The notes under the pieces: generated by a model
What the model saw: only the letters and a program-made list of their open reading frames with translations
The model's database searches: none
Told to the model about the DNA's origin: nothing
Position numbers and translations under genes: made by a program
In this document: piece after piece, positions 4,031-25,829 of the stretch
Position numbering within the stretch: the stretch's first letter is position 1
Layout: the number at the start of each line of letters is the position of its first letter
NCBI GenBank assembly: GCA_045534735.1
Contig: JAZSKG010000105.1
Location: forward strand, 1 to 31,670
Reading direction: 5' to 3'
Length of the DNA stretch: 31,670 bases
From: Candidatus Stercoripulliclostridium sp.
Lineage (GTDB): Bacteria > Bacillota > Clostridia > Christensenellales > DTU072

Positions 4031-4069
4031 CAAAATAAACAAGGGGAAAGGTTGCCCTTTCCCCTTGTT
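4031..4069 (-). terminator. Rho-independent terminator of the giant-lipoprotein operon
   Basis: Perfect 14-bp inverted repeat AACAAGGGGAAAGG (4038-4051) / CCTTTCCCCTTGTT (4056-4069) with a 4-nt loop, followed on the minus strand by TATTTT, about 20 nt after the stop at 4091. Confidence 0.88.
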
Positions 4070-4090: not shown

Positions 4091-7000
4091 TTAGTCTTCC
4101 GTTTCCAACGTGCATTGGTCACAATATTCTTGTCCGTTTACGGCATAATTCTTGTGGCATTTAGAACAGAGAACTTCTAATGCTATTCTATTTTGTGAGA
4201 ATACGTTTTGTGCTTGTATGTCGTTTCTTAGAGCAACTACCGACTTGATTGCCGTATCGTTTACGGTAAATTCATTATCAAAGATAGACGTGGTTGCTTT
4301 TTCTGACGTAATGTTCACGGCATATCCGCTATTTGCATTAAATACGTTAGTATCTAGTACGATATTGCCGTTTTGTAGATATACGCCGTTTATGTTTCTA
4401 TACAAGGTAGAAGTACGTAATTCAAGGGATCCACCCAATAGATAGATAGCGGTGGTATATCCGTTAAAGTAGGTATCGGTAACGTAAACAGTACTCTTAT
4501 ATCCGGCCTCGGTTCCTATTGCTTTACTATTCGTTAGTGCAGTAGTTCCCTTTCTTACGAACTCACTTCTGGATACGGTCAATGCACTTGCACCTGCTCC
4601 TACTCTAATGGAAGCATCGTTAGCAACGCTGGTTAGAGAAACGATATCTAAGTATAGCGCACCCTTGTTTACAATGATTTGATCAAAGTGTACTGCTATC
4701 CTTTCCATTTCCTCGTCTTGAGCATATGCACCTATCAAGGAGAGGTTTACCTCTTTACTAATAGTAATGGTTCCGTATTCACCGGGAGCAAGATACCAAA
4801 TTGCAGTAGAACTTGCGCCGTCGCCTGCTCCTAATTGAGCAAGTGCTTCTAAGAGTTCCGTTCTATCTTGGATTACACGAGTATTGGGTTTGTCGGCAAC
4901 AATGTTGTAAACGCCGTCAACCACCTCGGTTATCAGGTAATTCTTGTGGAAGTCTGCAGAAAGAACGGCATTCTTGTTTGCAAGAGTTAAAGGATAACTT
5001 CCAACTATATGTCTGCTTGTTAGCGTTCCACCTGCCCAAACAACCTCTAGGTCACCGAAGGTTACGAGTAAGTTGGTGTCGTATCTACCAACCAAACCGG
5101 CTTCTTTCTCATTATCTGCAGAAACCAAAGTTAGAGTCTTACTGCTATCCCTTAAGTTTACAAGAGCATCTAAGTATTCGCTTGATAGATTGTTTACTAT
5201 TAGTTTTACTTCCCTCTTGTGTACGATAAAGTTGTGTTCATATAGTGCGTTATAAACGTTTGCGCCCACGTTTGCACTAGGATAGTTAATTCCACCATCA
5301 ATCTTTACGGTTACTTGGTAAGAACCGGCATCTTTTATCTTAGAACCGGGAGCCATGGTTTGACCGGTCGTTAGGTTCTTGTAAATATAAGTTACCTCTA
5401 TTCCGGCTAAATCTTCGGGCAATCCGTTAACGGGAACGTCAAAGTATTCACCGGTGTACTCAAAGTCTGTATCAATGGTGTAGTTTACCTTCTTGGGCGT
5501 TACGTGTATTACGATGATGAAGTTGGTTTCACCTATAGTATAGTTACGTTGTCCACCGGTAAATACAAGTTCCATTACGTAGGTTCCTACGTTTATAGGT
5601 CTTAAGTTTTCTATGAATTGATGTTGTGAAGCGTTGGGGTTATAATAGCCGTACTTTGCTTCCGTTCTTGCTCCGGTAGGTATGCCGGCAACTGCGACGG
5701 TTCTTTCTTTACCATTATACTCAAAGGTTACTTGTTGTATCATAGTGGAAAGATTTGTGCCGTTTTCATCAACGTAGTCGTATCTGCTTTCTTCTATTCT
5801 AATGGGATTGCCTTGACTGTCTACGTTTTCATAGAAGAATACGTTATCGGCATTGATGATACGTTTGTTAATAACCATCTTATAGTCAACGAATCCGGTG
5901 AAGTTATAATCATCGCCATCGTTAACAATAAGCCTAATGAAGTAATCTTCTGCATCGGCATTTTCTTTAACCTCAACGGGTTGTGTTGCAGACCAGTTAA
6001 TTCTTCCGTCTATTGAATAAAGAACGGTGAAGTTAATAGGTGCATAAGAGCCGTCTTCACGGAGAAGTTCTACACTCTTAACAAAGTCCTTAACCTCTAA
6101 TTCTTCGCCTGAGTATTCTCTATTACGGAAGTTTACTCCGTCTACTTCTTCCCAAATGAAGTCGTCTTGAGTTACCCTTCTTCTTTCTATAATTACGGTT
6201 ATTGCGCCACTTATAACTCTACCATAAGCATTGGTGTAGTAGCAAGTTGCCGTATATTCGCCTGCTTTGTTTTGGTTTAGAGTATCCAATTCCCATATGG
6301 GAGCGATTCCGGAAGTCGTTAAAGGTAGATCGCTTGCAGTTACTTCGGTACCAAGCGGGAATCTTAGTAGCGTAGTTTCAAAGGTTACGCTTTCTTCCTC
6401 TATCCAATTGTAAGAGTAGGTCTTAATTGGCATCTTGAAGGAAATGAACATCTTGTCGCTGTTTTCGCTTGTAGCATCTTTATCACCGGAAAGTCTGGGT
6501 GAATCGTTAAACGACAAGAAGGTGTAACGACATTCAATGTTAGCAACCAAGTTCTCAACGTCGTACTCAATGTTTACTATTTCCATATACTCGCCGTCTT
6601 CAGAAACGATAATTCTATCGGGCAAGATGTTGGTCTCGGGACCGGGGATATAGGTTCCTGCTGCGTTAATACCAATTGGTATGTAGTCGTAAATGAATCC
6701 ACCGTTTACAAAGCCCAACGAAGATGCGCGAGCACCTATTGCACTATTTGCTACGGTAGAACGTAGAGCATAGAGTTTGGGATCTATTACCTTAATTGTA
6801 AATACTACGTTGTCGTCGTCAACCAAGCCGAGCATAGCATCTACGTTGGAGTATACCCTACCCGCTACGTCCGTCTTAACGGTTGATAGACTCTTAGCGG
6901 GGAAACTAAGTGGTACGGGTGCGATTTCGGAGAAGCCATCGTAATCAAAACGATAGTAGAGTTGTTTTGGTAATTGTTCTTCTAGAGGTATTCCCGCAAG

Positions 7001-10000
7001 CACGTACAAAGTACCACCACTCATTGGTTCTTTGGTCGTTTGACCATCGCCAACGTCTTTGGAAACGGGAATATTACGCGCTCTAATGGGGAATTGTACT
7101 TGTAAGGTTGTACCATAGACGTTCATCTTGGCCGTGATAACCATATACTTTTCGCCTATTGCGCCGGTAATAACGCCAACCGTCAATAGGTGATCTTTAT
7201 TATAATTCCACTCTATGTCAGTTGCATGATAAGGAATGGTTGAACCGGTAAAGATTACGTATACGTCTTCGGGGAAGGCAATGTTATAGGGGTCAATGTA
7301 GAACTCGTCTCTTGCTTGTTGATAGTTGTCAACGGCACCTTCGGGAACCTCGGAAAGAATGGTTTCCTCTCCGTTCTTGAGTACGTAGGTGTATTCTACT
7401 TGTCTGTTTACCGTGGTGAGGGAAAGATCTAGATAGGTACCGAATCTTTCGTCGTCACCTACGAAGTTATAGAGGTCGGAGGTAATCGTTTCACCGCCAA
7501 CAACGTATTGTACGCGGAATCTTCTAATCTTAGCAGATATTGCGCCACCCTTTTCATTTGTTCCAACTAGAGAAATATCACGACTTAATACCCATTCAAT
7601 GTCAACGAGAGTAATTTCTGCACCGAATTTTTGTAGTGCTTCGGTTGCAACGTCGTAAGCGTCGTAGTCGTTAGCAAAGCCCAGTACCAACGTGGAGGGC
7701 AAGGTGTAACGACTTCTTAGGTATCCATCGTTATTCGCGGGGTATAGAACGTTGGTTCCACCTTCTAGTTTGAAGAGTCTATCATCGGTAGGAGTGGGGT
7801 CTACTACGAAGGTATAGTTGTAAACCAACTTGCCTTGGCTGTTGGTATTTACACGGAGCAAGGGATACAAGGAGCCGTCCTTAGCAACGTTAGTGTAACC
7901 ACTTTCCTTTGTGGAAATTGCGCGAGGAGTACGATCCAAATAGGTAACGCGTACTGCAAAGGTAAACTTCGTGTCACTATCTCCACCGGAGGTTACGTCA
8001 CAATATACAAGTCTTGTGCCACCCTTAAGATCAATATGATATATACTTTCGGGGCTGGATGCGTCCTTGTTTTGCCAATCAACTTGAACTTCGCCAAGAT
8101 AAATTAGCGTTTGAGCATCTAGGTTTAATCTACCTCTTGCAAGAGCCGTAGTGGGTATTACGGGGTTCAAGGGGTCTATTACAAGTTCAACGTCACCACT
8201 ATAAGCATAGCCGGCGCCAAATCCAAAGTTAAGTTCGTCTATACCAACTTGTTGTGCGTCAAACTTATAAACGTTAGCAGTCGTATAAGTGTTGCTTAAT
8301 TCGTCTTTGTAAGCGTTAGAGAAGGTTATGGAACCCAGTTCTGCAGAATCTCCCCAGTTTGTCTTATTCCAAGACATAATGGTTCTGCCCCTTTCTACGG
8401 AGTTTACGTAATACTCGGGATAGAAGGTTAGTACTTCTACGGTTTCATTGCCGTTCTTATCTACAACTATAAAGGAAACGTTGAAACTTTCGGCAATGGA
8501 TACTAGAGTAAAGTCGTTAAACTCAATAACGTTTTCTTTTAGACCGTTTACTTTGTTAAAAGTCCACGTATCTGCAAAGAAAGTCATCTCCATAACTTGA
8601 CCGGAGGTGCGACTATCGCCGATTCCGTTACCCACATAGCCGTAAATGGTGTACTCAAATCCACCGTTTACCTTAATGTCGTCGTTTACAAGATCTACTT
8701 TTACACCATCCTTTTCTATTCTCCAAAGAACGTTTGGAAGAACGGGGGTGAGAGCGGAAACGTAGGCGCTATCATAAATGCTTACGTTATCGTTCTTTAT
8801 TTCATCATAATAGATTATGGTGCTATTTGCGTTTTGTGAAAGGCTTTCATACAAAGCATCTAAAGCACTACTTTCCGCATTAGTGATGCCACGCATAGCG
8901 CTTAGGTCATAAAAGTCCTCTTCGCTTAAAGTAGAAGGTAGATCTTCAACCAACATACCAAAGGGATTTTCTGCCTTAAGGGTATTGGGGTAACTTTGAG
9001 GACGAGTGAGCGTTCTGTTGAGAACGTATACTTGTAAAATGAAGTATTGTTCTTTATCTAATTCGTCAAAGTTTCTTAGGCTTGAATAGAACAAGTAACT
9101 TGCGCCCTCGTAATCGCCACCATCATAAACGTAATGGCCGTCTACCATGGTGAAGGGAGCATTCTCCGTTGCAAGAGTCCACTCAACGTTTTGGGTAATG
9201 AGATCTCTGCCACTTACGTTTTCATTTGAATGTTCGTCCACGTATTTCTCATAGTACTTAAATTGAGCCGTGGTAGGCAAACTGAAGGTTGCTCTATCGT
9301 ATGGATCTACATAGTAGATACCATTTACAAGAGCACTTGTGCCCTCTCCTGTCTTAGAGTAATAGAATACGTCTTCAAGCACTCTGCATGGGAAGGTTAC
9401 TATCAAACGGAGAGTATCGTTTCCATCGGGCAATGCAACCTTTAAGTAAATAGGATCGTTTACCCCATAGCCATATTCTTGTGATAGAGTATGTCCTACG
9501 TTGTTGTAAGGAATTTCGGTTATTAACGTATACTCTTCTTTGTTTACGTTATTACGGATATAATACTCAACGGGACGTGGCTTTGAGTCTTCTTTAAACT
9601 CATAATTTACTTCACCAAAGGTTACTTTGATGTCCTTTGGCAATACGAATTTGCCTTCTCCACTATTTGCATATTGATCAAAGGTCATATTGTTGCCGTT
9701 AATGACGTAATCACTATGGCTAATTTGACCTGCCGACAACTTGGTTACTTCTACAAATAGTCTTATTTCTTGTTCTTCGCCGTTATATCCAACAATCTTA
9801 TTGGTTGCAAGAAGTGTAGCATTTAATCCGTTTGAAGTAATTGCGTCTTCTAATTTAGCAACGTCAAACAACTCGGGATTATTATCGTCTGCAAAGCCTG
9901 CACCGGGCATCCAACTTCCTATTAGACTGAACTCAATGTCGTAAGCACTGGTAAATGCCGACGTTTGATCGGGCACAATCGTCGTGGGAAGATTTAGGAT

Positions 10001-13000
10001 TAGATTTTCAAGAGGTAAGTAATCGTAAACGTTACTTATGAGTAGCGTACCATTCTTGATTTGATACAAGCCACTTGGATCTTGTTCGCTCTTATTGGTA
10101 TGATACTTGGTAAAGTTTACGTTCTTAGCATAGAAGGTTATATGTCTTCTAAAGATTTGGCCGTTGGGAAGTTCGGTCGTTAGTTTTACTATACGCGTGG
10201 AAGTAAAGTTGAAGAAGTCGTATTTAACGTTTTCTACAATCGCGCCGGCATCAATCTTTTCGTCGTTTACTAGACTGGTAACGGTTTCTTCTGCTCTCCA
10301 TACGAGGTTAGTGTACTTAACGGCGCCACTATATCTATAATCTACAACAAACTCTTTATCTAACTTATAACCATCGGTCGTTGCATATAGGGCGCTACCA
10401 TGAGCGTCAAATACTTCTACTGCCTCGTTGTAAGCATCTCCCTCTTCTAGTATAGTGTTATCCTTTAAGAATGATACTGTTACGTCAAAGGGTTGAGTAC
10501 CACTTGACTTGGTAAGTTTTTCTATTCTGAAACGGAATATTACGTGAGTGTCGGTTACCGTTACGTTGGGATCGGAGGTTTCTACGTTTCCATAAACTAA
10601 TTGGTCAAAGTTTTCGGGTAGCACGTAGTCAAGTTTAAGTCCCCTTCTTGCAGTAGATGCAAATGAAAGGGTAACGTTGGAGAATATGTATTCTATGTAT
10701 TCACTCGGAGTGCATAGTCCATATTGATTGGTTAGGGCAAAGTACTTATTGATAGCGATATCAATGGTGTTTTCGCCGGTGATTTCTACTACTTGTTTGC
10801 CGTCCTCGCCAATGAGGGGTTCTCTCTTACCTGCAACCTCTTGATACTTATAGGTTACGCGTTGGATTTCCGTTTGCAAGGTTACCGCAGAGAGACCATT
10901 CTCGTCTTTTGCAGAAAGGTTCTTGTCGTAGTTGCCAAAACTGATGTCACCAAGTACTCTTTGCTCAATTCTAAATCCCATTCTGATTTCTTGGGCTTGA
11001 GGCGTACCCTTTCTAATAATACCTCTTAAGAAGTAAATATTTTCTCCTATATCGTGGTATACGGAAGAGCCGAGAGGACTTCTTAGGATTGATAGGAACT
11101 CTTCAAGGTTAATCCATTCTATTTCAATGGGTTTACCATAAGTTCTGGTACCATCGTTAAAGCCTACGTCTATGTGGGTAATACCATATAGATCCTCGTA
11201 TAGTTTTTGTGATACGTGATTTTCATCGTATGGATCTATTAACAAATAGTGATAGGTTTCAAACTTGGTTAGCGTTGCTTCGTCAACAGAGGCAAGACCA
11301 TATATACGATTTTCGTTTACCTCTTTATATACGTATGAAAGGTTCAACTCAACGGTTTGCTTAATGATACCGTCTGCACTTTCAACGTCGGTATATACGG
11401 TTACTATGCCACCCTTTCCACTAGGTATAAATCCTTGTGCGCTTCCTTCAATAGGATCGCCGTTTGCATCTTTGCGATACCAGAAGAGGTTGCCCATCTC
11501 TTGTTGTTGTATGCCTGTTTCTTCCGGGAAGTAGAGAATTAGGGAGGTGGGGAGCATGAACTCTTCGTATGGGTTTAATCCCTCTACGTAGTATTTTCTA
11601 TAAGATTCTACTTGGTCGGAATTATCTACTATTTCCGTGCCTTCTTCGTTGTATCTTCTTAAAACGGTATTTATTCTATCTCCATTTGCATCAAAGAAGT
11701 CAACGTTGCTGTAGTTTGCAGAGTGGTTGCAAATTACCATTTCTAACGTTTGAGTTATGCCGTCGTAAATGCCGTCGTTGTTAGCATCTTCATATTTACC
11801 TATTACGCCTCTTACGCGCATATAGGTTTCTTGGGCAAACGCATTCTTTATGCTATATACCGTCTTGAATAGAGAGGTGCCCTCTATAATCTCTTGTTTT
11901 TCTTCAAGAATGTTGTTTTCTGCTATCCAAAGTACGGGATAACCTACAACTTGCATTCTTCCTTGGTACATAACCTCTACGTATACGATTTCCGGTAGGG
12001 TTGCCGTTCCTTTCTTGTAGGGGTCAAAGTCATAATAATCCGTGTAAACAGATTCAAACCTATCAAAACTTGCAAGGCTTACTTTAACGGGTTCTATCTT
12101 GGAACTTTCGTGAACGTTATTGGTACCCTCTACGTAGTTTATGGAGGTATATGCCATTACGGTTTGCGCTCTCGTTCTTATTTCACGAGTGGGGCACAAC
12201 ACCTCTAGGGTTATATCTTGCGAACCAATGCTGTCGGAATCACCAAATACACATTCAGTCTTATTGGTTTTACCATTGTTCAAGGGGTTAATGGTACGTT
12301 GTACGGTTACGTTATCTGCGTACTTAATGGTCCAATCCAAGGACTCGTTATAGTATCCGTCACAATCGGGATCGGTATTTACGAAACCTGCGGGCTCGTT
12401 TCCTATTATTCTATAAGAACCGGAAGTAAAGTAAATTCTTACTTCATTCTTCTCGTCGGTGGTTGAGGGAATATAATAGGTTTCAGACGACAAACTATCT
12501 ATTGTGTATTGTCCGGGAAGTTCGGTGTTAATTTGAATGTGTGAGAACTTCTTTGCCTCAATTGTTACAACGAGGGCTATACGCATAGTCTTATACTTTT
12601 GTACTATGGTATATTCGCCACCTGAATACTTAATTCTGGAAGTGTCAAATCCCCAGTCAAACCTAGGAAGTTCTACGTATTCAATATTGCTTGAACCGGT
12701 ATATTCCACGAAGCCAATCTTTAATACGTCTGAATAACTGCCGTCTACGGGGTCTTTATAACTGAAGGGATAGTAGGTTTGACCTAGGCTGGTTGCAGAC
12801 TTATTATCCAAATAATATTGGAATGGGTCTATGGTTACGTGAGCAACTATTGGAACTCTATAATAAGAACCATCTTCTTCAATACCATAGTATTCGTTAG
12901 CCACGGCATTTCTGCCCTTAACCTCTAGTGCAATCTTAAACTTTTGCTCGGCTATGGAGCCTTTACCTATAACGATGGTATATTCTTTTTCTTGCAAACC

Positions 13001-16000
13001 ACCCATTAAGTTTTGAACGGTTTCGTTATCATAAGGGAAATCAACGAAATCATAAGATAACGTGCCTATAGATCCGTCCATGTAAAGAACGCCTATGGTT
13101 GCGGGAATGGGTTCTTCGTCAATGGGGTCAATAACCATCTTATAAATGGTACTATCGGGGCTATAAAGTTCTTTAACCTTCTTGGTGCCGTTTTCCAGAT
13201 CGGTTATAAACATTCTATATTTGGCAATTTGACCGAATAATTTTGCTTCGGGATAATACTCAAATTCGCCGTCTTTGATAGTAGCAGATTCGCCTTCATA
13301 GGTTAGTTTGAAGGATAGCGCCGTGCCGTTACCAAAGGTAACCATAGCGTTTTCCGCCCACTTTGCTTCGTAAATAGAGGCCCAACGTTCTTCGTCTACC
13401 ATATTTCCGTTTTCATCAACTACGTTGATAATAGGAGCAGAGTATTCGCTTGCATCTACGTTTATGATAGGCTTAGAGAAGGAAATCTTAACCTTCAATT
13501 CTGCCATGAAGTCCTCTATTCCAAAAATGCTATCCAACGGATCAGTTATTTTCTTGCCCTTACTATCGTAAGAGGGACTTAACATAACCGACAAATAATC
13601 GGGAGCGCCCAAAGTAACGTCGCACTTGTCGCAAACTTCGTCGCCTAGAACATCAACGTGAACGCATATAGTAACGTTGCATTCGTCACAAACACCGTTA
13701 GCATCTACGTCAACGTGATCGCAAATAGCCTTGTTACATAGGTCACAAACGCCATCTGCCACTTTGTCGTCAAGGCGTGCACAAATGAAACCTTTACAGC
13801 AGTCACATTTTTCATCCTTATCAAAGTCGTAGTGAACGCAGGGGTACTCTCCCTTTGAGATATTGCCTTCAGTTGCAAGAATTTCCAAAGCATCAACTAT
13901 GCTTTCAAAATCCCAACCATCCTTGCTTTCGGTAAGTATACCTATGAGTTCTATGGTAGTTTCTCTGGGTAATACGTATTTAACGCCTAAAGCATGGTTA
14001 TTAACGAGTAGTTCACTCTCGTCTTCCGGGCTAGAGCAAAGGTCTACCAAAGGAGTTCCGTTTAGGCTAACAAACGCATTAACGTAGTACTTGTTATTGG
14101 TTTGCCATAGATCCATCTTGATGCCGAGTTCATCACTCGTAGTCATCTTTAGACTGCTGTTCTTTCCACTTACGTCGCCAACAAAGAGTCCCATAAGTTT
14201 GCTTACGTCGCTTTCGGACTTGCCTTGTATACGTAAACTACCTTCAAAGTGTAAATTTATGGTTCCGGGATTCTTAAACTCTTCAAAGGTATCAAAGTAA
14301 CCTATTTCTTCCGGGAATTCTACGATCAAGTGACCATTGCCGTCGTACTTGTCGTTTTCATTGCGCTCGTCTGATGCGCCTAGCGTCAATACAAAGATAT
14401 CATTTTCCCCTGCTTTACCCGTTATAATAACGTTGTCGGTATTGGTATCCCATGCAAGTTCTATAGCAAGGTCGTCAAAATATCCTAGGCCTATAATGTC
14501 CCTAACCATGCCCTCTTCAAGTCCGAGAGTGTTTGCAATAGTAGAAACTATGGTTGCTTCCTCTTCGCCTATAACGTGGCTTAAGAGTTCATTATCTATA
14601 AGGATATAGAAAACTCCGTTATCGCTCTTTATTCTATCTAAATATAAGGATAGTTCTTTGTTGTCTTTTAGTGAAGGATATCCGTCTTCATCTTTTCCGA
14701 AAAGGCCACCTATGTTAATTTCTACGTTCAACATGCCGAGTGCTTTTTCTACAAGTATTTGTAGTTCCTCAGCCATATTTAGTCCTTCAAACTTAATGCG
14801 AGGTAGACCTAACTTCTCGTATTCCATAAAGTCGCCTATATGTTCTTCAAATAGGCCTTTAGTGTCAACGTAAGTGATGCCGTCTTTGTAGGAAGCGGAG
14901 AATATTCTATTGTTCTTACTAAACTCTGCGTTTCCTTGGTTTTCGGTACGATCAACTATATCAATAAGGATTTGGTTTATTGAGTTGTCGTTAGAACTAA
15001 AGTTTCCTTGTACTTTAGCATCAAAGGTTTTATCAAAGGCCGGCACGAAAAGTTTGCCTGCAAGATCCAAAGAGGTTGCACTTTGGGGAACGTAATTATT
15101 ACTCATGGGGTCATCGGCCCTGGTTAGTCTAACGTCGCCCTTTTTGTAATCGGTAGAGTAATCTACGTCAAAGTAATAAGTATCAATGTTATTTGCTTGG
15201 TTACCTGCAAAGTTAATGTTGAAATCGGTAACGTTTTGTTCGCCGTCAATTTGTTTTTCAAATACGGTGAGTAGTTTTGCGTTAAATAGACCTATTTGTA
15301 CTCTACCTAGATCACTAAGTTCAAAGCCGAGAATCTTTTTGGTTAGTGCATCAAAGCGAGTGCCGAGGGTTGCTATATTGTTTTGTATAAACTCGTTTAC
15401 AACGGGCTTTAGGGTATCAAGGTTAATATTGTCAACGGATACGTTGAATTCACTGTCAGAGAGGATAATTTTAGAAATGTTTTTACTATCAACAGAAGCA
15501 GCCATCGCTTCAATATTTTCGGCAAACTCCTCCGAGAATAGGGTTTGCTCCATATCTAAAATGGTGACTGTTTCGTAGAAAATTTGGAAGGTGGAAGTAC
15601 CACCAAAGTCCTCTACCTTTATGTATTCTTCTCCAATAGCAACGTATAAATCGTTGTCTACAAAGTATACGAATAAGGTATTTTCTTCCTTGTTATAGTC
15701 AAAAACTCGTACCATGATTTCGCTGTCTTGGGTACGTTCTAAATCGTAGTTTGCTTGATATTCAATACCAATATTTACGGAATTGGCTATGAAGGTATAC
15801 TTTGAATCTACGTAACGAGTACCCGTAGTTGCTTCATCTACGAGTTTACCGGCACTAACTAGGCCATCTCTAATTTCGCCAAAGATTTGACCTTTGTTTA
15901 TGTTGGACGAAGGATTATCCGGAGTAGTTATATCTCCGGAATTGTTATCGCCACCCGGTAGGTCGGTGGGGTTATTTTCATCCCCCACGTTACTACAAGC

Positions 16001-16066: not shown

Positions 16067-16104
16067 TACTATTATCCTCCCGATGGACTCAAGCCATCGT
16101 TAAT

Positions 16105-17589
16105 TTATGAAATAAGTACGGTTTGGAATAGGTCGGTGTATATGGTTATTAAAGGAGTTACCTCTCCTTCAACGTAGACCTCTACCTTTACGGAGTTTCT
16201 AATGGTCTTTGTCTTGCCTGCTTCTATGAGGTTGTTGCAGTTGTCGCATCTATGATCGCCGTTTTCGTCAATTGAGTTACATACGCTATATTCGCCCCAT
16301 TCTACGATTCTATAAAGATATGAGGTTGTATCCGTTATTCCCTCATTTGCTATACCGTCATTAAGTGCGTTTATTAGAGAAGCAGTATAAAGTGAACCAT
16401 AAGGATTTACTTTGTCATTATAATCGTTTATGGCATAACTAATTTTAACTCCACTTGCAACGGCGTTGTCACTTGCATTGTAGAAGGTAGTCTTGTTAGG
16501 TGACATATCTAATAGAACCAGTCTTACGTTTACTATTTGTTCATATATAGCGTTTGTACCGTCGTAGACCTTTACTATTACCTTCCAGTAGTCTATTACG
16601 CCACCACCAACGAATTGGTCTTGACCAAGAATTAAGGTATCACCACCGGTTGCCCTATCCCACCAAGTTAAGGTGTAGGTAAAGTTTTCGGCGGAAATAT
16701 CGCTTCCGTTGTAGTAACCATATACGTTTGCCTTGTCAATTTGCGTTACGTACTTGTCGCCGTCTACGGGGGTTCCGAATATGGGCTCTAAGGGGTTTAG
16801 TACCATTATGATAGGTGCTTCGTTTAGCCCGAAAGCCTCTATTCTTACTTGGTCGGTACCCTTACCATATCCAACGTCAAGTCCTGTAATTTCAAATACT
16901 TGGTTCCATACTCTCTTAACGATATTGGTGTTATATACCCTACCGTCAATACGTACTGACTTGGAATATTGGGTTTTGGTGTTATTGGAAATATATACGT
17001 CTTCTTCCCAACTTTCTACTCTATAAGTATGTCTACCACCAACCATTCCAAGGTCGTTAACGGCAGTGTCAAGAACGTTGCGTTTTTCGCCGTCACGATC
17101 TACTTGAGTATTAATTAAACGAGAGTATAGGTCCTTATATGGATTAGACGCGCCCGCGTACGTAGTTGCATTGTATACACTCTTGTATGGAGCCTCTGTC
17201 AAAGTATTAACTGCAGGACTACTGCTGTTAATGTAACTTATAGGACTTATATCCAACGCAACAAGTACGATATCAAAGGTTTGAGAATATGAGAATGATG
17301 GATCGTGGATGCTGGTTAATTCAAGCATTACGGTCCAGTTTCTTATGATGCCACCACCAAGCAATGCATGAGAGAGATTGAGTGAATTTACACCATCCCA
17401 AATTACGGTGGTAACTAAGCCTTGCTCGTCGTAACTAATTGCATACTCCGTATTGTAAGTACCAATTGCAGAAACGGTACTATCGCCGGTATCGGGGTTT
17501 ACCCACTTGGGATTCAAGGGGTTAACTACGAATATTGCGTTGTTTTGAGTACCCATACCATAACCTAAGTCAATTTGCAAAATGCTTGG
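16105..17589 (-). repeat. Tandem duplication (~230-260 aa x2) at the C-terminus of the 3213 aa protein
   Basis: Copy 1 (17589-16897): ILQIDLGYGMG...VVNPLNP...LLGGGIIRNWTV...IVLVALDISP...NPYKDLYSRLIN...YRVESW. Copy 2 (16896-16105): ITGLDVGYGKG...VLNPLEP...FVGGGVIDYWKV...VRLVLLDMSP...NPYGSLYTASLIN...YRIVEW. Confidence 0.85.
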
Positions 17590-20500
17590 GTTCTCGTATT
17601 GGTAGATAGCGGGTACAAGTTGGAACTTGGTTGCGCTTACAGAGTTGGCTAGTATGAAGTAACCGGTTGCTTCGCCTTCGCCTTGTGCTCTATTAAGAGC
17701 ATCTCTATCCCAAATCATACGATATTCGTAACTATCGTCGTAAGAAGGATCTATCTTTTCGGGACTAATGCCTTCCGGAACGAAAATCTTGGAAACCATC
17801 GTCTTTTCTAGGTTGCCTTCGGGTGAAGATGAGGTAATCTCAAAGTCAACTTTATAATGGTCAATGGAAGATACGCCGGTGATTGCACTAATTACAAATC
17901 TCATTGCATCCCCTTCCATTATGATGTAGTCGCCGTTAGCACTGGGACGACGTACTGCCTTATGATCCCATCTGTCAACGTAAACTTTAATAACAACGGG
18001 TTGACCACGGTCTACGTTATAGATGTGTCCACGAACGTAGATCGGTACTAGGCCACTTTCGTCAACGGTACCTGCTACGGTAATTTGACTGTCGGTAAAT
18101 TGCCAAATCAAATTAAAGTCTTGTCCGTCAAACGAGTCGGCACTTATTACTATTTCGGGTAGGTCGCTTGCTCTACCTGCGAAGGGGTCGGTGTAACGAT
18201 AGTATGCATTGGGGTTTTCATAACTATCATAGTAGTCAACCACTCCGTTTACTAGTTGATAACTTTCAAATAGTCTGTCCGCAACCTTTACCTTAAGCAA
18301 TAGGTCTTGTGAAGCCATTCCTTCATAGCCACTCAAAGTAGAAATGAAGGAGAAGAAGTTGTTGTGATCGCCTCCAAGAACGGTTTGGAAGGTATCGTAC
18401 ATTACCTCAAAGTTCTCAGGAACGTTCCAGTTCGTGGTGTATTCTAGAGGTTCACCTTCGGTGAAATTGATGGTTACTTTGTTAGGTACGGTAATGTTGT
18501 CTTCGGTATATGGGTCAAGAATTAATACGGAGTCGTCTTGTTGACCTGCATTAATGGACTCTACAGTCTTATCCAAGAAGTGGAATATAACGGTTATAGT
18601 TTGACCATCGCTTAGTTTAGCGTAGGCTAAAACGTCACGATCGCTTATTCTACCCTGTCCTACCCACTTGTGTCCGTTTAGATCGTACTCAATTTGAGAA
18701 ATCAAGTGTTCGTTTCTACATGCGGGATCGTAGTAGAAGTATAGTCCACGACCATAGTTGTACTTGTCGGGATACCCGGGATCAATTACTCCGTCGTCGT
18801 TGAGGTCTAGGGTACGATCCAATGCGTTATAAACAAGGTTGATGTTGGAGGGAACCAAGAAGTTTCCACCATATGCCCAGTTATGGTAAGCATCTATGTC
18901 AACCACGATAACTTCGCCATAAGGATGGTAAATGGAGGTTGAGGAGTAGGATTGCTTTACTCTTGAAGTGAAGTGCAACGAGTCGTCAACGTCCTCTACT
19001 TCGTAGGCAATTTGTACTACCTCGGTGGGTAATACTTTAAGTTTTAAGGTAACGGGTTTACCCATGATGATGGAAGTAGCAAGGTCTATTTCACCACCGG
19101 GATATACGGAAGTACCTCTATAATCTATGGCGCTTAGTTCTGCTTCTACGCCATCGGCTAGCGTCCAGAGAATGTTTTTCTTTACAAGAGTTGAACTGGG
19201 ATCGCCAACTTTAATATTGCTGGGTAGTCTTTCCGAACGCAAGAAGGAAATTAACGGATAATTGTCGTACAAGTTGTCAATTATCAACGTACCATAGGAG
19301 ATGGTGTAGGGACTTGCGTCGTCGTCTGCAGAGTGGAAGTTGGAGCCTATTTCGTAAACGCTGGAAGAAATTTCAACGTAAACGCGTGAACTATCGTGTA
19401 GCATGGTGGAAAGCCAAATCTTACCACCGAGTTTCAATCTTTCTTCACTGATAACGCTTAATTGTTCGTACTTGTAAACCTCTACCATTCTATCGGTTGA
19501 AGCACTAAAGAATGCGTCTTCTGCCTCTTGAGTGGGGAATGCTACCGTCCAAACTGCGGGCACGGTTGCGCCTGATCCACCATAACGAACGGTGGTGCCG
19601 TCTGCGCGAGTAACGGTAAATTGTAGTTGATCTTGTAGTACGTATCCTCCTTCATACTTGAAGGTGTTGTCTGCGTTATAGATTTCCAGTTCTATAGCCT
19701 CTAGAACAATTTGTGATTGATCTTCATCAAAGTCAATGGAGGGCTTATCTTGTTCGGTCATTTCAAGCAAGAACCTAATGGTGAAGTCGTGAGCATCGTC
19801 GTCTTGACCAACGTAGATATCCACACCTTGTCCATAGGTGCCGGTCCAAGCCTCTATTAATTTTTGAGTATCTAGAGTACCAAAGATGGGTAGGCTTGCG
19901 CTGATAGTTGCATCGTTAACGCGTAGGTTTGCCTTATCGCTTTCGCTAAATACTACGGTGATATCGCTAAATAACCAGTTGAAGAATTCGTAAGGAGATA
20001 TTCCTGTGCCGTCCTTAAGTGCTATTAAGCCAGCCCTATTTAGTTGTACTCCACTTAGAACAACGTAGTTGTTAAAGGTGTCAACGGTTATATTGATGCC
20101 ACTGGGCATCTTTGCATCGCGAGTATCTTCTTCCCAAAGGTTAAAGAGTAGATCTTCTACCGTCTTTGCCTCTATTGAATAGGTGAGCATCATATCCTTG
20201 TGGTAAGAATGAATGTCGCCCAAAGTGGTGCTTAGGGTTACGGTAGTGCCCTGTACCCAAGGTGCGTGGTCATGCCAAGATGCAGGATAGATACGATTGG
20301 TGCCGTCTGCAAAGACGATATCCAAAACTTCCGGAACTTGGAAACGAGCATAAGTGTCAACTGCCCAAAGGTAACTCTTTAGTTGATATTCGCTTTGAGG
20401 AGTATCGGTTGAGGTTAGATATTGTTGTAGAACGTCAGCATACGTTAGGTTACCGTCTGCTAGGCTACCATCTATCATCTTGAAAGTTATATCCTCTGCA

Positions 20501-23500
20501 ACACCGGTCATGTGTTGAACTAGAATTCTGACCTTCATAGTGTTTTCGCCTTCACCGATGCTTGCTTCCAAGAAGTAGTAGTTTGCTACTAGGGTAGGAT
20601 CTACTATCAAGCGATATTCTCCGGTTGATGCATCAAAGTGAACGACGTCGTCGCCTTCAACGTTAGACCATTCAACGGTGTCAAAGTAAGGATCAAAGGT
20701 ACCCGTTACCGTGCCGTCAAAGTGAACGTAAATTTCCTTAGGTAAAATCCAAGTATTGCTGTCGTATGGGTCTACGTAATATACACCCCAGTTGTCGCCA
20801 ATGGTAACTTGACCGGGAGTATAGTAAGGAGCAACTTGGATATTCATAACCTTTTCGGTTTGGTCGTGGAAGTCATCGCCCGTCTTGAACGTATAGTCGT
20901 GTTCCCCTATTACTTTATCGGGAACCCTAACGGTTAGGGCAACTTCTTCTATGAAGAACCAACCTTCGTCGTGTTCGCCGTTTAGGTACCACGCACGATT
21001 GTGGTCAAAGTAGTTTGCTAGGTCAAAGTTAGAAGTGGTTACGTTCTTAATGGTTGCACCCGCCGTCTCTAAGAAGGGATATTCGTTGCCCTCTAGTTTT
21101 ACGTTATTTGCTACGGGATGATTCCACTTGATAACCTTTAGGGCATCGGGGCCTTCCAAGAGTTTTTGGAAGTTTTGTCCTTCAAATTCTAAGGCATATC
21201 TATCAAAGGTTGCGGGTAGAGTGCTAAAGAGTGAAGGAATATCGTCTATGGTATAGTTGTAGTCTTTTAAGTTCAATACGTATTCTTCTCCGTCTTGTCC
21301 CTTAAAGAAGTAAACGAGCTCGGTGGGGATAGTATAAGTATCGGGTTTTAGAGCATCTACAACGTACTCGTTGTGGTTGTCTTGACCTATTACCCAAACG
21401 CTTTCCAAGGTGCGTGGCAATACTTCAACGGATATTGCTATTACTTGACCATGGAATACGGTATGGAGATAGGTAATGTTGCTTTCCAAATAATCGGGGT
21501 TTGATGAACTACCGCTATGGCGATTGTTTATGTGTTCTTCTTTGTAAATAGCGCGATCGTTGGGGTAGCAGAAACTCCAGTCAAAGAAACCTACTTCATC
21601 GGGGGTATCCTCTTCGGGATCGTTGTAGAACTTAGTGAATTGGAAGGTTACTTCGTACTTCTTAAAGTACCAGTTTACAAATCCTTGCATCATTTCTTGT
21701 TCTGAAACCATACCACTATTCATAAAGAACGCCTTGTAGATGAGGTATGCGTAAGGATCAATGGTTACGCCGTCTGCAACGGGGGCTTTTACTAGACCGG
21801 ATTCGGTATTTACGTTTACGTACTTGTCGGTTTCAACCTCTCTGTTGAGGATCTTAACAACTACGTTTTCACGGTAAGTGGCCATCATGCCTTCACCGAT
21901 TACAACGTAAACTACGAACTTACCACCGTTCAAAGTAACGTCGTCCCAAGTCATGTTGTTGGTCCAATTGAATGAATGGAATATGGTGTTTTCCCAGTCT
22001 GCTTTGGTATAGTCGTCTCCAGCCCAGTTGTATTCTTTGGTGAAGTCGTAATTTTGAGTATAACCTACGCGAGTTTCGCCAAGAAGTGATTGTAGTTGTA
22101 GTGCCTCTGCGAAAGTTGATGCGTAGAAGTAGTTCTCGTCATAGTCGTAAAGGACTACGTAATTGGTGCCGTCTCCACGTGGGAATTGCATACAGAACAT
22201 ACCGGAGTCAAGGTCGTACTTGAAGGTAAATCCTTTTTGCGTTTCGTATGAGAGAGGATAGACTTTAGGTGGAACGTAGCCGGTTTCTTCATTGGGTTCG
22301 TTTTCGCCGAAGAACTTTTGAGCCTTTAATTCTTCTAGAATTGCTTGCGTTTCTACAACGTAAACGTCCCTATCTTGGTTGTAAAGAACTTTATAGGTGG
22401 GATGTTCTACTATAAACCAACCTTTCTTACGCATACCTAGATCGTAGGTAAAGGTTCTACCTGCGTCGTTGGTGTAGGTTTGATAATAGTACGGAACGTC
22501 CTTATTTATAACTTGCTCTACTGCCTTAGTGTGCTTTAATTGACTACCAAGACCGATAACGTAGAGGTTATTTTCAAAGTCGTAAATGATTTCATATCCA
22601 AGGTCGTTTATAACGGTATAGTAACCGGTATCCTTGTCGTAAACTGCGTGCAATCTAAACTCTGCATCATAGTTATGACGTAGGTCGGCGTCGCCGTAGT
22701 AAGCAGAAACCGTGGTGGGTACGTCGTCAAGGGGCTCCCAAACGTAGTAGTCGTCTACAAGGGAGTTGATGCCTTGTTTACCTATATCGGTGGAGATATT
22801 TACCAAGTAGTCGCGCGTTACGCCCATGAATAGGTCGTTAATTGCAGGCATATAGTAAGTTTCGCCGTTTACAACCTTTATGGTTTCCGGATCGTATAGG
22901 AAGCGGAAGTCGCGTTCTTCTATTCTGTCGCCGAAGTCAAAGTAGACCTTAATAGTTTCGTGGAGTTTAGTAGAGTAAACGGACTCTGCGTTTTCTCCCG
23001 TAATGGGGTCAAGGTCGCCTACTGTGTACATTGCGTACTTAACTTCTTCGTGGTCAATGTTGTGAACTCTTTGTTTAAATCCGATTCTTGCTTCAATGGT
23101 ACCGATTAGTTCGTCAACACGGAAGATATCCTTAACGTATTGGTTAGAAGTAGTAATACGGATTACGTCTGGCTCAAACATTAAGAAGGAGTCCTCGGTG
23201 AGGTTCATAACGAGTTTGGTGATACCTGCAGGGCTATAATCTTCCAGTTCGGTTTCGCCCATATATTCATAGAAGCCACGAATGAATATATCTTCGCGAA
23301 CCTTGAACATAGGCATATTTTCTACGCAATGATAGTCTAGCCATACGTAGCCCAGTTCTTCTACAGGAACTTCGCTACTGAAACTTACGTCGTTTGCGAT
23401 AATGGTAATAATGTCAACTTCTTTAGACTCGCCGGTATTGGTGTCAAGTGTGACGTAGTAGAAGTTAATCTTAAACGCACTTCTTGCAGAACGAGTCCAT

Positions 23501-25746
23501 CTGCCGTTAGGTAGCACTTGCTCGCGAATGTATTGGTCGTAGTCAATGTGGAAGTGGATATTTGCAGAAGCAGGCAAAATAAATGGCGTATTCAAACCAC
23601 TCATATCTCCCATGAATGAGCCTAATAAATCGGAAAGGTCAACTTCTTCTGCAGTAGCGAATATGAATTGTCCGTCTAGTGAGCCGGAGTAGGTCATAAC
23701 GTCTTGCAACTCGTTAAAGTCGTGGAAGGATGGGAATACTATTCTTACCTCTTCACCTATGTGGTTGGGGTAGAGGTCCATTCTAAGAACGAGTGAAGGT
23801 CCGTTTTCTTCTGCTTCTTCTTCGGACATATAGGCTTCGGTGAAGACTTCCAGTCTAATGCTGTATTCGTCAACGTCGTAGGTGACGTCAAAGAAGGTCT
23901 TTTCTATTAAGTCTTCTAGACTTATGTTCAAAATGGTAGCAATTTCTTGTAAATTGAAGCCAAAGTTATCCTGTATGAGTTGAACCATACTATCTGCAGT
24001 AATAACGGTGCCGTTGGGATCGCTAACGGTCATTATCTTACGTATGAGTTCTAGGGTAATTCTAATCTTGATGGTTGCACGGCTGGAAGGATCGTCCTCG
24101 TCTTTCATAGTGGAGGTAACGTTATCCATGATGGTGCCGGTAATTTCTGCAAACTTACTCTCCTCGTCGGGGTTAGGATTGCCGTATAGGATATTGTCAA
24201 CGGCAATAACTGCGTATTCGTCTATGAAGTCAAATAGCATGGAGAGAACGTTAGCAAGGTCAAAGCCACCCTTGTATGCCTTGGGTAGACCTATATCTTC
24301 AAATGCGATACCACCGTAGAGGTGTTGTAGCCCTTGAATATCAATGAAAGTTAAAGCCTCGTCAAGTGGAACGGGTTCGGCAAGTCCCGTTTCGGGATTA
24401 ATCTTAGAAAGTTTATCCTTTTCGCTAGGTACGGTGTAGTACATACCTATGATTAGGTCGTCGGTAGCAATATCACGGCAGTTCATGAAGATCTTGTTGG
24501 TCGTATTGTCTACTTCGTTCATATCCGTACGTAGTAAGACGTCAAGTTTAAGATCAAGCATGGGTATGAACATATCGCCCGTGTACTCGTAATCGCCGTA
24601 TGAGTAAAGGGTGTAGCCCTCTTTATCAAAAACGATATTGGGAGAGGTACGAACGTCGTACTCTGCAGAGATGTGTGCTTGGTAAGGAATGGTTTCTATG
24701 GTAGTTAGACCGGTTTGCTTGTTGTGAACGGGAACGGAGGTATCACCACTTGCATCTACTACTAGTTGACGCAAAATATCTTTACCAAGGTTTTCGTTGG
24801 GGGTAGATATAAATTCCATATCTGCGTTCATGGAGGTAAACGATGCCTTACCTAGAGTACTAAACAAGAAGCCCAAGTACTTGTTGCTCAAGGGGTCCAG
24901 TTTGTCCTCAAAGGGAGCGAATATGGATTGCATGAATTCGGTAATGGTATCAACAACGGTACCAAGGGGTAGGCTGTTAAAGAAAATGGTGGTATTGTCG
25001 CCGTTAAGGGTTTGCTTGTAGTTGTTGGTAACTGCAAGATTGAGCGCCTCACGCAACGTATCCATGGTAGCAGAGGAAGAAACGTTACCTTTGTCGTCTT
25101 CACTTGCAATCATGGTTTCAAGGTTAAATTGGGTAATAAGACGAATGAATTGTTGGTAGATTACAGAGTTACCAAAGTCTTTAAAAATGCGCTTACTGCC
25201 TTGTAGGTTGAGGTAAAGGTCGTTACCATCGTCTACGGAGTTAGGATTAATGCCGTCAAAATAGAAACCGATAAGCATCTCGTTGGTAGCACCGTCAAAC
25301 CATTCAAGAACTATATCGCTGTATCTAATAATGTCATTATGCTTAGCAAGAGCAACGGGGTCTACAAGTGGTAAACCGTCTTCGCCCAAAATCTTGTTGC
25401 CGTTAGCATCCTTAATTTCGTGAGGATAGGTGTAAAGGTTAGCCTCCAGTCTAAGTCTGAAAGCCGAGCCGTTATCGGTATTAATGAGCATGTCTGCGCC
25501 AAGATAATAACCGGTATCCGTTACGACGTCGGAGTCAAGGTGGGCAAGCAAGTTTTCAAGAGAACCAACAGCCTTATCTATGGCCTGTTCTTTAGTCGTG
25601 AAATCCTTGTAGTTGTCGTTTTGCGTTCCATCCACAATGGGGTATGGATCGCTGTAGTCCGGCTCAACGGGGGTACAAGCAAACAGAACCCCCAAGAGAA
25701 GCACTACTGCCAAAATGAAAATAATTGGTTTGAGATGACGGTGCAT
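16105..25746 (-). CDS. Giant (3213 aa) surface lipoprotein, paralog of the downstream 3991 aa protein, with Big_4-like Ig modules
   Basis: Uninterrupted 9.6-kb ORF with RBS AGGAG (25757-25753) and signal peptide MHRHLKPIIFILAVVLLLGVLFA-C24. It carries the same DPY...LP..[IV].V.F.DG...W modules (for example YYVDPYDSNTWILPKEIYVHF, LILDPYTEDNITVPNKVTINFTEG, VPEVLDIVFADGTNRIYPASW). Confidence 0.9.
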   Translation of the reverse strand: MHRHLKPIIFILAVVLLLGVLFACTPVEPDYSDPYPIVDGTQNDNYKDFTTKEQAIDKAVGSLENLLAHLDSDVVTDTGYYLGADMLINTDNGSAFRLRLEANLYTYPHEIKDANGNKILGEDGLPLVDPVALAKHNDIIRYSDIVLEWFDGATNEMLIGFYFDGINPNSVDDGNDLYLNLQGSKRIFKDFGNSVIYQQFIRLITQFNLETMIASEDDKGNVSSSATMDTLREALNLAVTNNYKQTLNGDNTTIFFNSLPLGTVVDTITEFMQSIFAPFEDKLDPLSNKYLGFLFSTLGKASFTSMNADMEFISTPNENLGKDILRQLVVDASGDTSVPVHNKQTGLTTIETIPYQAHISAEYDVRTSPNIVFDKEGYTLYSYGDYEYTGDMFIPMLDLKLDVLLRTDMNEVDNTTNKIFMNCRDIATDDLIIGMYYTVPSEKDKLSKINPETGLAEPVPLDEALTFIDIQGLQHLYGGIAFEDIGLPKAYKGGFDLANVLSMLFDFIDEYAVIAVDNILYGNPNPDEESKFAEITGTIMDNVTSTMKDEDDPSSRATIKIRITLELIRKIMTVSDPNGTVITADSMVQLIQDNFGFNLQEIATILNISLEDLIEKTFFDVTYDVDEYSIRLEVFTEAYMSEEEAEENGPSLVLRMDLYPNHIGEEVRIVFPSFHDFNELQDVMTYSGSLDGQFIFATAEEVDLSDLLGSFMGDMSGLNTPFILPASANIHFHIDYDQYIREQVLPNGRWTRSARSAFKINFYYVTLDTNTGESKEVDIITIIANDVSFSSEVPVEELGYVWLDYHCVENMPMFKVREDIFIRGFYEYMGETELEDYSPAGITKLVMNLTEDSFLMFEPDVIRITTSNQYVKDIFRVDELIGTIEARIGFKQRVHNIDHEEVKYAMYTVGDLDPITGENAESVYSTKLHETIKVYFDFGDRIEERDFRFLYDPETIKVVNGETYYMPAINDLFMGVTRDYLVNISTDIGKQGINSLVDDYYVWEPLDDVPTTVSAYYGDADLRHNYDAEFRLHAVYDKDTGYYTVINDLGYEIIYDFENNLYVIGLGSQLKHTKAVEQVINKDVPYYYQTYTNDAGRTFTYDLGMRKKGWFIVEHPTYKVLYNQDRDVYVVETQAILEELKAQKFFGENEPNEETGYVPPKVYPLSYETQKGFTFKYDLDSGMFCMQFPRGDGTNYVVLYDYDENYFYASTFAEALQLQSLLGETRVGYTQNYDFTKEYNWAGDDYTKADWENTIFHSFNWTNNMTWDDVTLNGGKFVVYVVIGEGMMATYRENVVVKILNREVETDKYVNVNTESGLVKAPVADGVTIDPYAYLIYKAFFMNSGMVSEQEMMQGFVNWYFKKYEVTFQFTKFYNDPEEDTPDEVGFFDWSFCYPNDRAIYKEEHINNRHSGSSSNPDYLESNITYLHTVFHGQVIAISVEVLPRTLESVWVIGQDNHNEYVVDALKPDTYTIPTELVYFFKGQDGEEYVLNLKDYNYTIDDIPSLFSTLPATFDRYALEFEGQNFQKLLEGPDALKVIKWNHPVANNVKLEGNEYPFLETAGATIKNVTTSNFDLANYFDHNRAWYLNGEHDEGWFFIEEVALTVRVPDKVIGEHDYTFKTGDDFHDQTEKVMNIQVAPYYTPGQVTIGDNWGVYYVDPYDSNTWILPKEIYVHFDGTVTGTFDPYFDTVEWSNVEGDDVVHFDASTGEYRLIVDPTLVANYYFLEASIGEGENTMKVRILVQHMTGVAEDITFKMIDGSLADGNLTYADVLQQYLTSTDTPQSEYQLKSYLWAVDTYARFQVPEVLDIVFADGTNRIYPASWHDHAPWVQGTTVTLSTTLGDIHSYHKDMMLTYSIEAKTVEDLLFNLWEEDTRDAKMPSGINITVDTFNNYVVLSGVQLNRAGLIALKDGTGISPYEFFNWLFSDITVVFSESDKANLRVNDATISASLPIFGTLDTQKLIEAWTGTYGQGVDIYVGQDDDAHDFTIRFLLEMTEQDKPSIDFDEDQSQIVLEAIELEIYNADNTFKYEGGYVLQDQLQFTVTRADGTTVRYGGSGATVPAVWTVAFPTQEAEDAFFSASTDRMVEVYKYEQLSVISEERLKLGGKIWLSTMLHDSSRVYVEISSSVYEIGSNFHSADDDASPYTISYGTLIIDNLYDNYPLISFLRSERLPSNIKVGDPSSTLVKKNILWTLADGVEAELSAIDYRGTSVYPGGEIDLATSIIMGKPVTLKLKVLPTEVVQIAYEVEDVDDSLHFTSRVKQSYSSTSIYHPYGEVIVVDIDAYHNWAYGGNFLVPSNINLVYNALDRTLDLNDDGVIDPGYPDKYNYGRGLYFYYDPACRNEHLISQIEYDLNGHKWVGQGRISDRDVLAYAKLSDGQTITVIFHFLDKTVESINAGQQDDSVLILDPYTEDNITVPNKVTINFTEGEPLEYTTNWNVPENFEVMYDTFQTVLGGDHNNFFSFISTLSGYEGMASQDLLLKVKVADRLFESYQLVNGVVDYYDSYENPNAYYRYTDPFAGRASDLPEIVISADSFDGQDFNLIWQFTDSQITVAGTVDESGLVPIYVRGHIYNVDRGQPVVIKVYVDRWDHKAVRRPSANGDYIIMEGDAMRFVISAITGVSSIDHYKVDFEITSSSPEGNLEKTMVSKIFVPEGISPEKIDPSYDDSYEYRMIWDRDALNRAQGEGEATGYFILANSVSATKFQLVPAIYQYENPSILQIDLGYGMGTQNNAIFVVNPLNPKWVNPDTGDSTVSAIGTYNTEYAISYDEQGLVTTVIWDGVNSLNLSHALLGGGIIRNWTVMLELTSIHDPSFSYSQTFDIVLVALDISPISYINSSSPAVNTLTEAPYKSVYNATTYAGASNPYKDLYSRLINTQVDRDGEKRNVLDTAVNDLGMVGGRHTYRVESWEEDVYISNNTKTQYSKSVRIDGRVYNTNIVKRVWNQVFEITGLDVGYGKGTDQVRIEAFGLNEAPIIMVLNPLEPIFGTPVDGDKYVTQIDKANVYGYYNGSDISAENFTYTLTWWDRATGGDTLILGQDQFVGGGVIDYWKVIVKVYDGTNAIYEQIVNVRLVLLDMSPNKTTFYNASDNAVASGVKISYAINDYNDKVNPYGSLYTASLINALNDGIANEGITDTTSYLYRIVEWGEYSVCNSIDENGDHRCDNCNNLIEAGKTKTIRNSVKVEVYVEGEVTPLITIYTDLFQTVLIS

Positions 25747-25829
25747 TTCTATCTCCTAACTGCGCATTAGCGCGTTTTTATTACATACATAGGTGCGTAA
25801 TGCATACGCTTGCGCGCAAAAATTATGCC

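Follow-up and report, generated by a model that had tools for sequence, protein, structure and literature searches.

The closest described analogues of the proteins considered here are Giant1–5 of Apilactobacillus kunkeei, extracellular proteins of 3,000–8,000 aa that are encoded by consecutive genes in a small genome (Pedersen et al. 2026, PMC12863079). Giant paralogs within one cluster are less than 20% identical, positional homologs are kept between strains, and recent gene conversion is absent; the shape of the proteins is elongated, one member is composed of beta-sheet domain arrays, and the neighbours Giant4 and Giant5 co-diverge (PMC12863079). A comparable pair of giant genes, here called A and B, lies in a 31,670-nt stretch of DNA (hereafter the window; contig JAZSKG010000105.1 of assembly GCA_045534735.1, positions 1 to 31,670) from a metagenome-assembled genome of Candidatus Stercoripulliclostridium sp. 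(1.62 Mb, 79% complete). The two very long open reading frames (ORFs) are on the minus strand, encode 3213 aa (A) and 3991 aa (B) and are separated by 38 bp, as an initial annotation of the window, made from the sequence alone, had stated (Table 1). Like the Giants, A and B are elongated, contain beta-sheet domain arrays, co-diverge and show no recent gene conversion; no sequence relationship between A/B and Giant1–5 was found. We consider it fairly probable that A and B are co-expressed, non-redundant, predicted lipid-anchored surface fibres, with a conserved base in A and a faster-evolving arm in B that ends in a beta-helix/MBG tip.

The two proteins could be aligned by BLASTP over their first parts (A143–735 to B115–652, E 1e-17, 21% identity), with a few weaker collinear pieces besides. 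When profiles built from family alignments (19 A-type and 13 B-type sequences) were compared by hhalign, we obtained a single alignment extending from A1–2844 to B1–2723, with E 3e-123, a score of 1161, 2192 columns and 20% identity. The top off-diagonal alignment scored 105, about 10 times less, meaning that the comparison is dominated by one diagonal and not by an all-versus-all similarity of repeats. Searches of the whole B profile with 150-aa segments of the A profile put the positional cognate on top in 18 of 19 cases (up to residue 2850; E 1e-13 to 6e-4), in keeping with the earlier impression that each module is closest to its positional counterpart; the sole non-cognate segment was the A-specific insert at ~1022–1280. 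The 11 motif pairs that the initial annotation had listed in the same order were all present and aligned; the register is complete for 10 of them, and LGYGMG/FGFGAG coincides in 3 of 6 columns. The shared part stops at a well-conserved module, A2714–2838 / B2601–2717 (E 3e-12), and the C-termini diverge beyond it, so that the end of the collinearity had been placed correctly near A 2830 and B 2700. Judged from these alignments, the A–B collinearity is real and distinct from generic repeat similarity.

A maximum-likelihood tree was computed from 13 A and 13 B sequences, each cut to its first ~1000 residues. In this tree, A and B were reciprocally monophyletic (support 100/100), and their subtrees had nearly the same topology, with base branches ~1.3–6 times longer for B. 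Within each genome, A and B are 21–23% identical; gene conversion between them was rejected given the steadiness of this value. From the reciprocal monophyly, the mirrored trees and the 21–23% identity, we infer that the A/B duplication is older than the family and that both copies have been inherited vertically, without being homogenised. The ancient whole-gene duplication with preserved domain order that had been proposed at the outset is thus upheld by the profile alignment, the segment searches and the tree. The pair offers a clean natural case in which the domain order of a multidomain protein of ~2,700 residues has outlasted duplication and divergence to 20% identity, and should be useful for asking what holds domain order fixed.

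A profile of the base detected the locus in 60 of 61 genomes, and in 17/17 genera, of the Christensenellales-like family to which the window belongs. In at least 40 genomes A is followed by B on one contig and strand, with the two ~9–11 kb apart, the remaining assemblies being fragmented; the reversed order was seen in none of the family genomes searched. Homologs are therefore not commonly single. In five metagenomic contigs bearing A orthologs (29–53% identity), the A gene is followed by a co-oriented gene of 3,474–3,908 aa. Elsewhere in the order, beyond the family, the base profile finds short partial matches alone. Among 1.84 billion representative proteins there were 101 matches, nearly all of them giant proteins or fragments thereof, which fall into A-like and B-like score classes. 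Overall, A orthologs show 29–99% identity and range from ~2,600 to 4,300 aa, while B orthologs range from 3,400 to 6,800 aa.

B-type orthologs of 6,340–6,800 aa were observed in some genera (G168:C3, G034:C16 and G227:C3; B-like proteins P0110 and P0111). The extra modules of long B orthologs are mostly found in the stretch delimited by the last two shared anchors, and a recent tandem duplication was rejected as the origin of the extra modules in long orthologs, as no BLAST self-matches were present.

Relatives of the window have been sampled from goat, sheep and roe-deer colon, chicken caecum, digesters and termite guts, and DNA near-identical to the window occurs in ruminant-gut metagenomes from 8 studies. 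A single scan recovered 58 loci of the family. The host bacteria, none of them cultured, are common in digesters and in the guts of ruminants, birds and termites. Their genomes measure 1.3–2.7 Mb, and the pair takes up ~1.3% of the window assembly (21.7 of 1,624 kb); given this cost, and the retention of the pair by every sampled genus, it is likely to be central to the contact between the cell and its surroundings. Literature searches for the A/B family returned nothing. The searches support a protein family that has no Pfam or NCBIfam model and matches no described family; the statement that no system of such architecture had been described agrees with the lack of a Pfam/NCBIfam family match and with the 101 matches in 1.84 billion proteins.

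An alternative to two separate fibres is an obligate parallel heterodimer, whose modules would pair in register, with a stalk ending at the last common module and a tip formed by B alone. The arrangement in one operon with a short spacer, a strictly 1:1 occurrence in a constant gene order throughout the family and the mirrored phylogenies are all in line with such a complex, as is the fact that collinearity stops at one well-conserved module. Moreover, in genus g2 one interval has gained ~500–600 aa in both A and B, and the correlation of evolutionary rates is mildly positive, albeit not significant, at the base (r 0.19–0.24) and at the terminal module (r 0.39). However, the length of the shared part is not matched between A and B across relatives. 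When segment hidden Markov models (HMMs) were used to locate the last shared module in each genome, it started at residues 2701/2551 (A/B) in the window, at 2745/2412, 2888/2429, 2673/2470, 2712/2416, 2920/2382 and 2335/2222 in the closer clade, and at 3461/4547 and 3462/4541 in genus g2. The A–B offset thus amounts to 113–538 aa (1–4 modules) in the close clade and to ~1,080 aa (~9 modules) in genus g2; in genus g3, the expansions of A and B fall into different intervals. The ~250-aa insert of A has no counterpart in B, and the B base evolves ~1.3–6 times faster than that of A. The conservation of B is flat (15–37% identity among orthologs), and the conservation of cognate A and B segments is uncorrelated (r –0.18, n 18). 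Relative-rate covariation across 13 genomes, a comparison of low power, was 0.011 for cognate and 0.012 for non-cognate segments (permutation p 0.52). None of these indirect tests of length, constraint and rate, all of low power, favours a strict zipper, and we lean against it. The preserved module order can be explained without pairing: a whole-gene duplication produces it by default as long as domains are not shuffled, and it is therefore not by itself evidence that the chains pair. All in all, we regard the in-register heterodimer as unlikely.

Co-occurrence, a single operon and mirrored trees fit a functional partnership between A and B, and the chains may make contact at the base or at the terminal module. 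A stricter version of such contact, namely an obligate 1:1 heterodimeric lipid-anchored fibre clasped together by the paralogous LolA/LppX-like bases and by the last shared module, with the intervening Ig arrays lying loosely alongside each other, appears rather improbable to us. If true, this clasped heterodimer would be a family-defining envelope organelle of DTU072/Stercoripulliclostridium-type Christensenellales, without a described counterpart.

The attachment of the two proteins was assessed with the PROSITE PS51257 lipobox pattern, run as a regular expression, which asks for an N-terminal signal peptide that has K/R, a hydrophobic core and a lipobox with Cys at its end. The lipobox cysteine is Cys24 in A and either Cys19 or Cys24, both compatible with the pattern, in B; the assignment of Cys24 to both proteins in the initial annotation was borne out, with Cys19 as a second candidate in B. 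The pattern was matched by 25 of 26 A/B orthologs, the lone exception being a mis-called start. As for the necessary enzymes, the genome encodes two copies of Lgt (LGT matches of 192 and 132 bits) and LspA, i.e., signal peptidase II (Peptidase_A8, 109 bits). Neither LPxTG nor a second or C-terminal hydrophobic segment was found in A or B, confirming by sequence scan that the proteins have no LPxTG, SLH or C-terminal transmembrane anchor. These data support the lipid anchoring of A and B through predicted acylation of the cysteine. The two candidate cysteines of B lie in window 16010–16066 (minus strand); orthologs carry one.

In four genomes of the family, three of which are at least 96% complete, we found no Omp85, LpxC, sortase or SLH, and the same four genomes encode penicillin-binding proteins, Lgt and LspA. 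Going by this gene content, the family members are walled, single-membrane bacteria. Because the genomes have neither sortase nor SLH, lipid anchoring is a plausible display route for large surface proteins, and it seems to be the only evident tether that the family has for them.

Structure models were built from the family alignments for two stretches of A, residues 25–1030 and 1270–2400. The model of the base (A 25–1030, m6a16c6a72609; pLDDT 77, pTM 0.64) is not Ig-like. With VIA-align, model residues 25–355 matched LppX (Z 8.2), LprF (8.1) and LprG (7.4), and model residues 357–658 matched LolA (Z 8.8), followed by LolB and ependymin down to 7.5. The alignments cover the greater part of every target, and the half-barrel matches span 135–180 aligned residues. 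Foldseek also found LprF (probability 0.99), and in the AlphaFold DB the base retrieved an LppX_LprAFG lipoprotein entry (TM by hit 0.47), as well as several unnamed lipoproteins of 770–1070 aa. Pfam and NCBIfam searches of the A and B base gave no LolA or LppX_LprAFG family match. The models thus lend moderate support to two LolA/LppX-like half-barrels in the base, an assignment that we hold at fold level because the Z values are close to the background of the tool. Large lipid transfer proteins, which headed the Foldseek list (vitellogenin, lipovitellin, ApoB and MTP, E 2e-5 to 2e-4), were rejected as models of the base (TM ~0.1, VIA rmsd 20 Å). Within A, the base is the best-conserved part, with 42–54% identity among orthologs as compared with 20–36% for the array. 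Giant open frames from outside the family, including one of 8,606 aa, have no more in common with the base than a ~100-aa piece at profile positions ~358–466 (G023:C3:618956-619213, G113:C104, G059:C95), which may be a mobile sub-domain.

The second model (A 1270–2400, m4dbd224653cf; pLDDT 84.7) consists of beta-sandwich modules in a string, with some helical inserts. Foldseek returned 186 PDB matches at E ≤ 1e-3, all of them Ig, cadherin or S-layer arrays; they include the GhpA grappling-hook protein, protocadherins, Sap, EA1, SbsB and the Ig modules of BbgIII (E 4e-8 to 1e-5). VIA-align separates single modules of 115–135 aa, with low Z values (≤4.3). The modelled fold therefore supports Ig-like modules, as the initial annotation had suggested. 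Its assignment of 15–20 modules per protein to the Big_4 type was not supported: Pfam Big_4 (PF07532) gave no match at E ≤ 1 in A or B, searched whole and in pieces, and the literal LP..V.V.F.DG motif occurs in 1–2 places in A and 5–7 in B. Weak Big_4 matches are present in 6 of 19 A orthologs (best E 1.6e-5). When whole proteins and nine pieces were searched against Pfam and NCBIfam, A yielded nothing and B yielded Beta_helix and a weak MBG_3 alone, so that, of the families put forward earlier for an HMM scan, Beta_helix was recovered marginally, MBG_3 weakly and Big_4 in neither protein. Leads from the ESM Atlas (scores ≤0.87) included MBG, Big_2, YDG, Beta_helix, PKD and Rib.

The two chains differ in their inserts and tips. 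The A insert contains an internal repeat (A1024–1142 matches 1089–1220) and is confined to the clade nearest to the window, being absent from the A orthologs of deeper genera; residues 1024–1220 (window 22087–22677, minus strand) consist of short repeats in which Tyr/Asp hairpin motifs abound. At the end of A, the first copy of the terminal module is the cognate of B 2601–2717, and a short Cys motif is found near the C-terminus (C3156, C3167 and C3170; window 16237–16281, minus strand). B has a Cys block at 741–822 that is lacking in A, and its distal part comprises MBG-like repeats (3214–3626), a right-handed beta-helix (3842–3941) and a Cys4 tail of the form CxxC...CxxC (3967–3985; window 4112–4168, minus strand). 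The beta-helix was matched by Beta_helix (PF13229) with E 7e-6 in the whole protein and 3e-7 in a fragment, and a precomputed PF13229 match exists in 9 of 12 B orthologs. MBG_3 was matched by a B fragment with E 0.012, and MBG_2 in one B ortholog; the B tip sequence had no match in the PDB. The Cys-rich motifs of A and B may be metal knuckles or inter-chain links.

According to the reading that we favour, of two co-expressed and non-redundant surface fibres, Lgt and LspA would process the cysteine and leave the base on the outer face of the cytoplasmic membrane, from where the module array would cross the wall and reach out by tens of nanometres. Both fibres would be made together and do separate jobs: A would provide a slowly evolving base and a short tip, and B a faster-evolving arm with a tip that is probably glycan- or partner-binding. 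Contact between the chains is possible, with the base or the last shared module as its most plausible site, and a full-length in-register zipper is not required by the data. Several points weigh against this picture. The modelled residues number 2,137 of 7,204; the base Z values of 8–9 compare with a stated background of 7–8 and indicate a match at fold level alone; the Pfam matches of the B tip are marginal, with Beta_helix at 26.2 bits against a cut-off of 25.9 (30.7 bits for the fragment); and no RNA run was among the listed sequencing runs that contain window DNA. Furthermore, adhesins are not usually universal and vertically inherited, as this pair is, and its role could instead be a structural one in the envelope.

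This last point leads to another explanation, that the pair is a core envelope scaffold or lipid-handling device and not an adhesin, in which the tandem half-barrels at the membrane would bind lipids, glycolipids or the acyl chains of lipoproteins and the arrays would serve as a wall-spanning spacer or coat. Besides universal presence and vertical descent, one may cite the fact that the base is the most conserved part of A, its fold matches to the lipid carriers LppX, LprG, LolA and LolB, the resemblance of the Ig arrays to the S-layer proteins Sap, EA1, SbsB and SlpA, and a lineage with neither SLH nor sortase. However, likeness of fold does not show lipid binding, and GerS, a LolA-like lipoprotein of C. 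difficile, is reported to have a non-lipid role (10.1101/2025.01.13.632879). B ends in modules of a binding-tip type (beta-helix, MBG), and at least 20 other giant open frames in the genome make giant surface proteins a general habit. A scaffold or lipid device is, in our opinion, very doubtful, and two lipid-anchored fibres with distinct tips still provide the preferred account.

At the DNA level (Table 1), the promoter-like site at 25903..25875 is the top scorer of the region, its support being the match to the consensus; across the whole region, promoter-like sites are fewer than in shuffled sequence (12 observed vs 22 expected by chance). The 5' leader (25747..25872) folds with a minimum free energy of –41.3 kcal/mol (z –3.2), and 0 of 200 shuffles fold equally well; its hairpin and U run could act as an attenuator. 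Nothing terminator-like was found in the A–B spacer, because the sole hairpin there is weak (–9.5 kcal/mol, z 0.12) and is not followed by a U tail. The single upstream promoter and single downstream terminator described by the initial annotation thus have their counterparts at 25903..25875 and 4069..4038, with no terminator in between. This layout supports A and B as an operon-like unit.

Table 1. Features of the A–B locus and its surroundings (window coordinates)
Feature	Position	Strand	Remarks
Third lipoprotein gene, 1023 aa	26575..29646	-	Upstream of A; own terminator
Sigma-70-like promoter, TTGACT + 17-nt spacer + TATTAT	25875..25903	-	Consensus, 10/12 matches; 129 nt 5' of A start codon
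Structured 5' leader of A–B unit, 13-bp hairpin then UUUUU	25747..25872	-	Predicted by folding
Gene A, predicted 3213-aa lipoprotein	16105..25746	-	Mature 361 kDa, pI 4.3
A signal peptide and lipobox, Cys24	25675..25746	-	PS51257-type pattern
A base, aa 25–1020	22687..25674	-	~aa 49–379 LppX/LprG-like, ~aa 381–682 LolA-like, then third beta-sheet domain
A-specific insert, aa ~1022–1280, short internal repeats	21907..22683	-	No B counterpart
A array, ~12 Ig-like beta-sandwich modules, aa 1281–2850	17197..21906	-	Collinear with B 1030–2723
A terminal module, two tandem copies, aa 2722–2933 and 2953–3190	16177..17583	-	E 2e-21 between copies
A–B spacer, 38 bp, Shine-Dalgarno GGAGG	16067..16104	-	Sequence; folding
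Gene B, predicted 3991-aa lipoprotein	4091..16066	-	Mature 444 kDa, pI 4.4
B base, aa 25–1000	13067..15994	-	Homologous to A base (BLASTP, hhalign)
B Cys-rich insert, aa 741–822, 14 Cys in CxxC-type pairs	13601..13846	-	Asp-rich CxxC units repeated
B Ig-like array, aa 1030–2723	7898..12979	-	Collinear with A by profile alignment
B-only distal part, aa 2724–3991, ~1,270 residues	4094..7897	-	Further beta modules, MBG-like repeats, beta-helix, Cys tail
Intrinsic terminator, 14-bp stem (7 GC pairs) then T-rich tail	4038..4069	-	3' of B

The lipoprotein gene upstream of A encodes a very acidic protein with an Asn/Gly-rich linker. Its similarity to A/B by hhalign is confined to at most the first 94 residues, signal peptide included, and a search of the ESM Atlas with it gave no match. 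A gene of ~760–900 aa is present at the same upstream position in four other loci (L003, L005, L007 and G034), and a lipoprotein signal peptide was found on this gene in the three metagenomic loci checked (786–894 aa).

Open frames no shorter than 1,500 aa number at least 20 in the window genome, the longest having 4,794 aa; they account for ~11% of its assembled bases and are located on contigs C204, C240, C169, C91 and C264, among others. None of these other frames is a detectable relative of the A/B base. As far as the predicted proteins tell, giant surface proteins are a general habit of this genome, and the A/B pair stands out among them by being universal in the family.

Returning to the comparison with described proteins, the Giants of A. 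kunkeei, unlike A and B, have no lipobox, their attachment being proposed to occur via a C-terminal SH3b-like domain; Giant1–3 form alpha-helical rods and have a beta-solenoid at the N-terminus, neighbouring Giants are not reported to be collinear module by module, and the phylum-level context differs (PMC12863079). With LolA/LolB and mycobacterial LppX/LprG/LprF, A shares a predicted open half-beta-barrel with helices directly after a lipoprotein signal peptide; however, those are single-domain proteins of ~200 aa, whereas A and B would have two such domains in tandem, with long inserts, joined to an array of Ig-like modules that exceeds 2,000 residues. Like GhpA of Aureispira, the S-layer proteins Sap, EA1 and SbsB, Rib/Lig domains and BbgIII, A strings together beta-sandwich modules of ~115–135 aa, although the likeness to GhpA, Sap, EA1, SbsB and BbgIII is at fold level alone (TM ~0.1 over the whole chain, VIA Z ≤4.3). 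Unlike those fibres and S-layers, A and B carry no SLH, LPxTG or type IX signal, and their predicted anchor is an N-terminal lipid. It is the combination of parts that appears unusual, in that a lipid anchor at the N-terminus is followed by a tandem LolA/LppX-like base and this in turn by a long Ig-like array.

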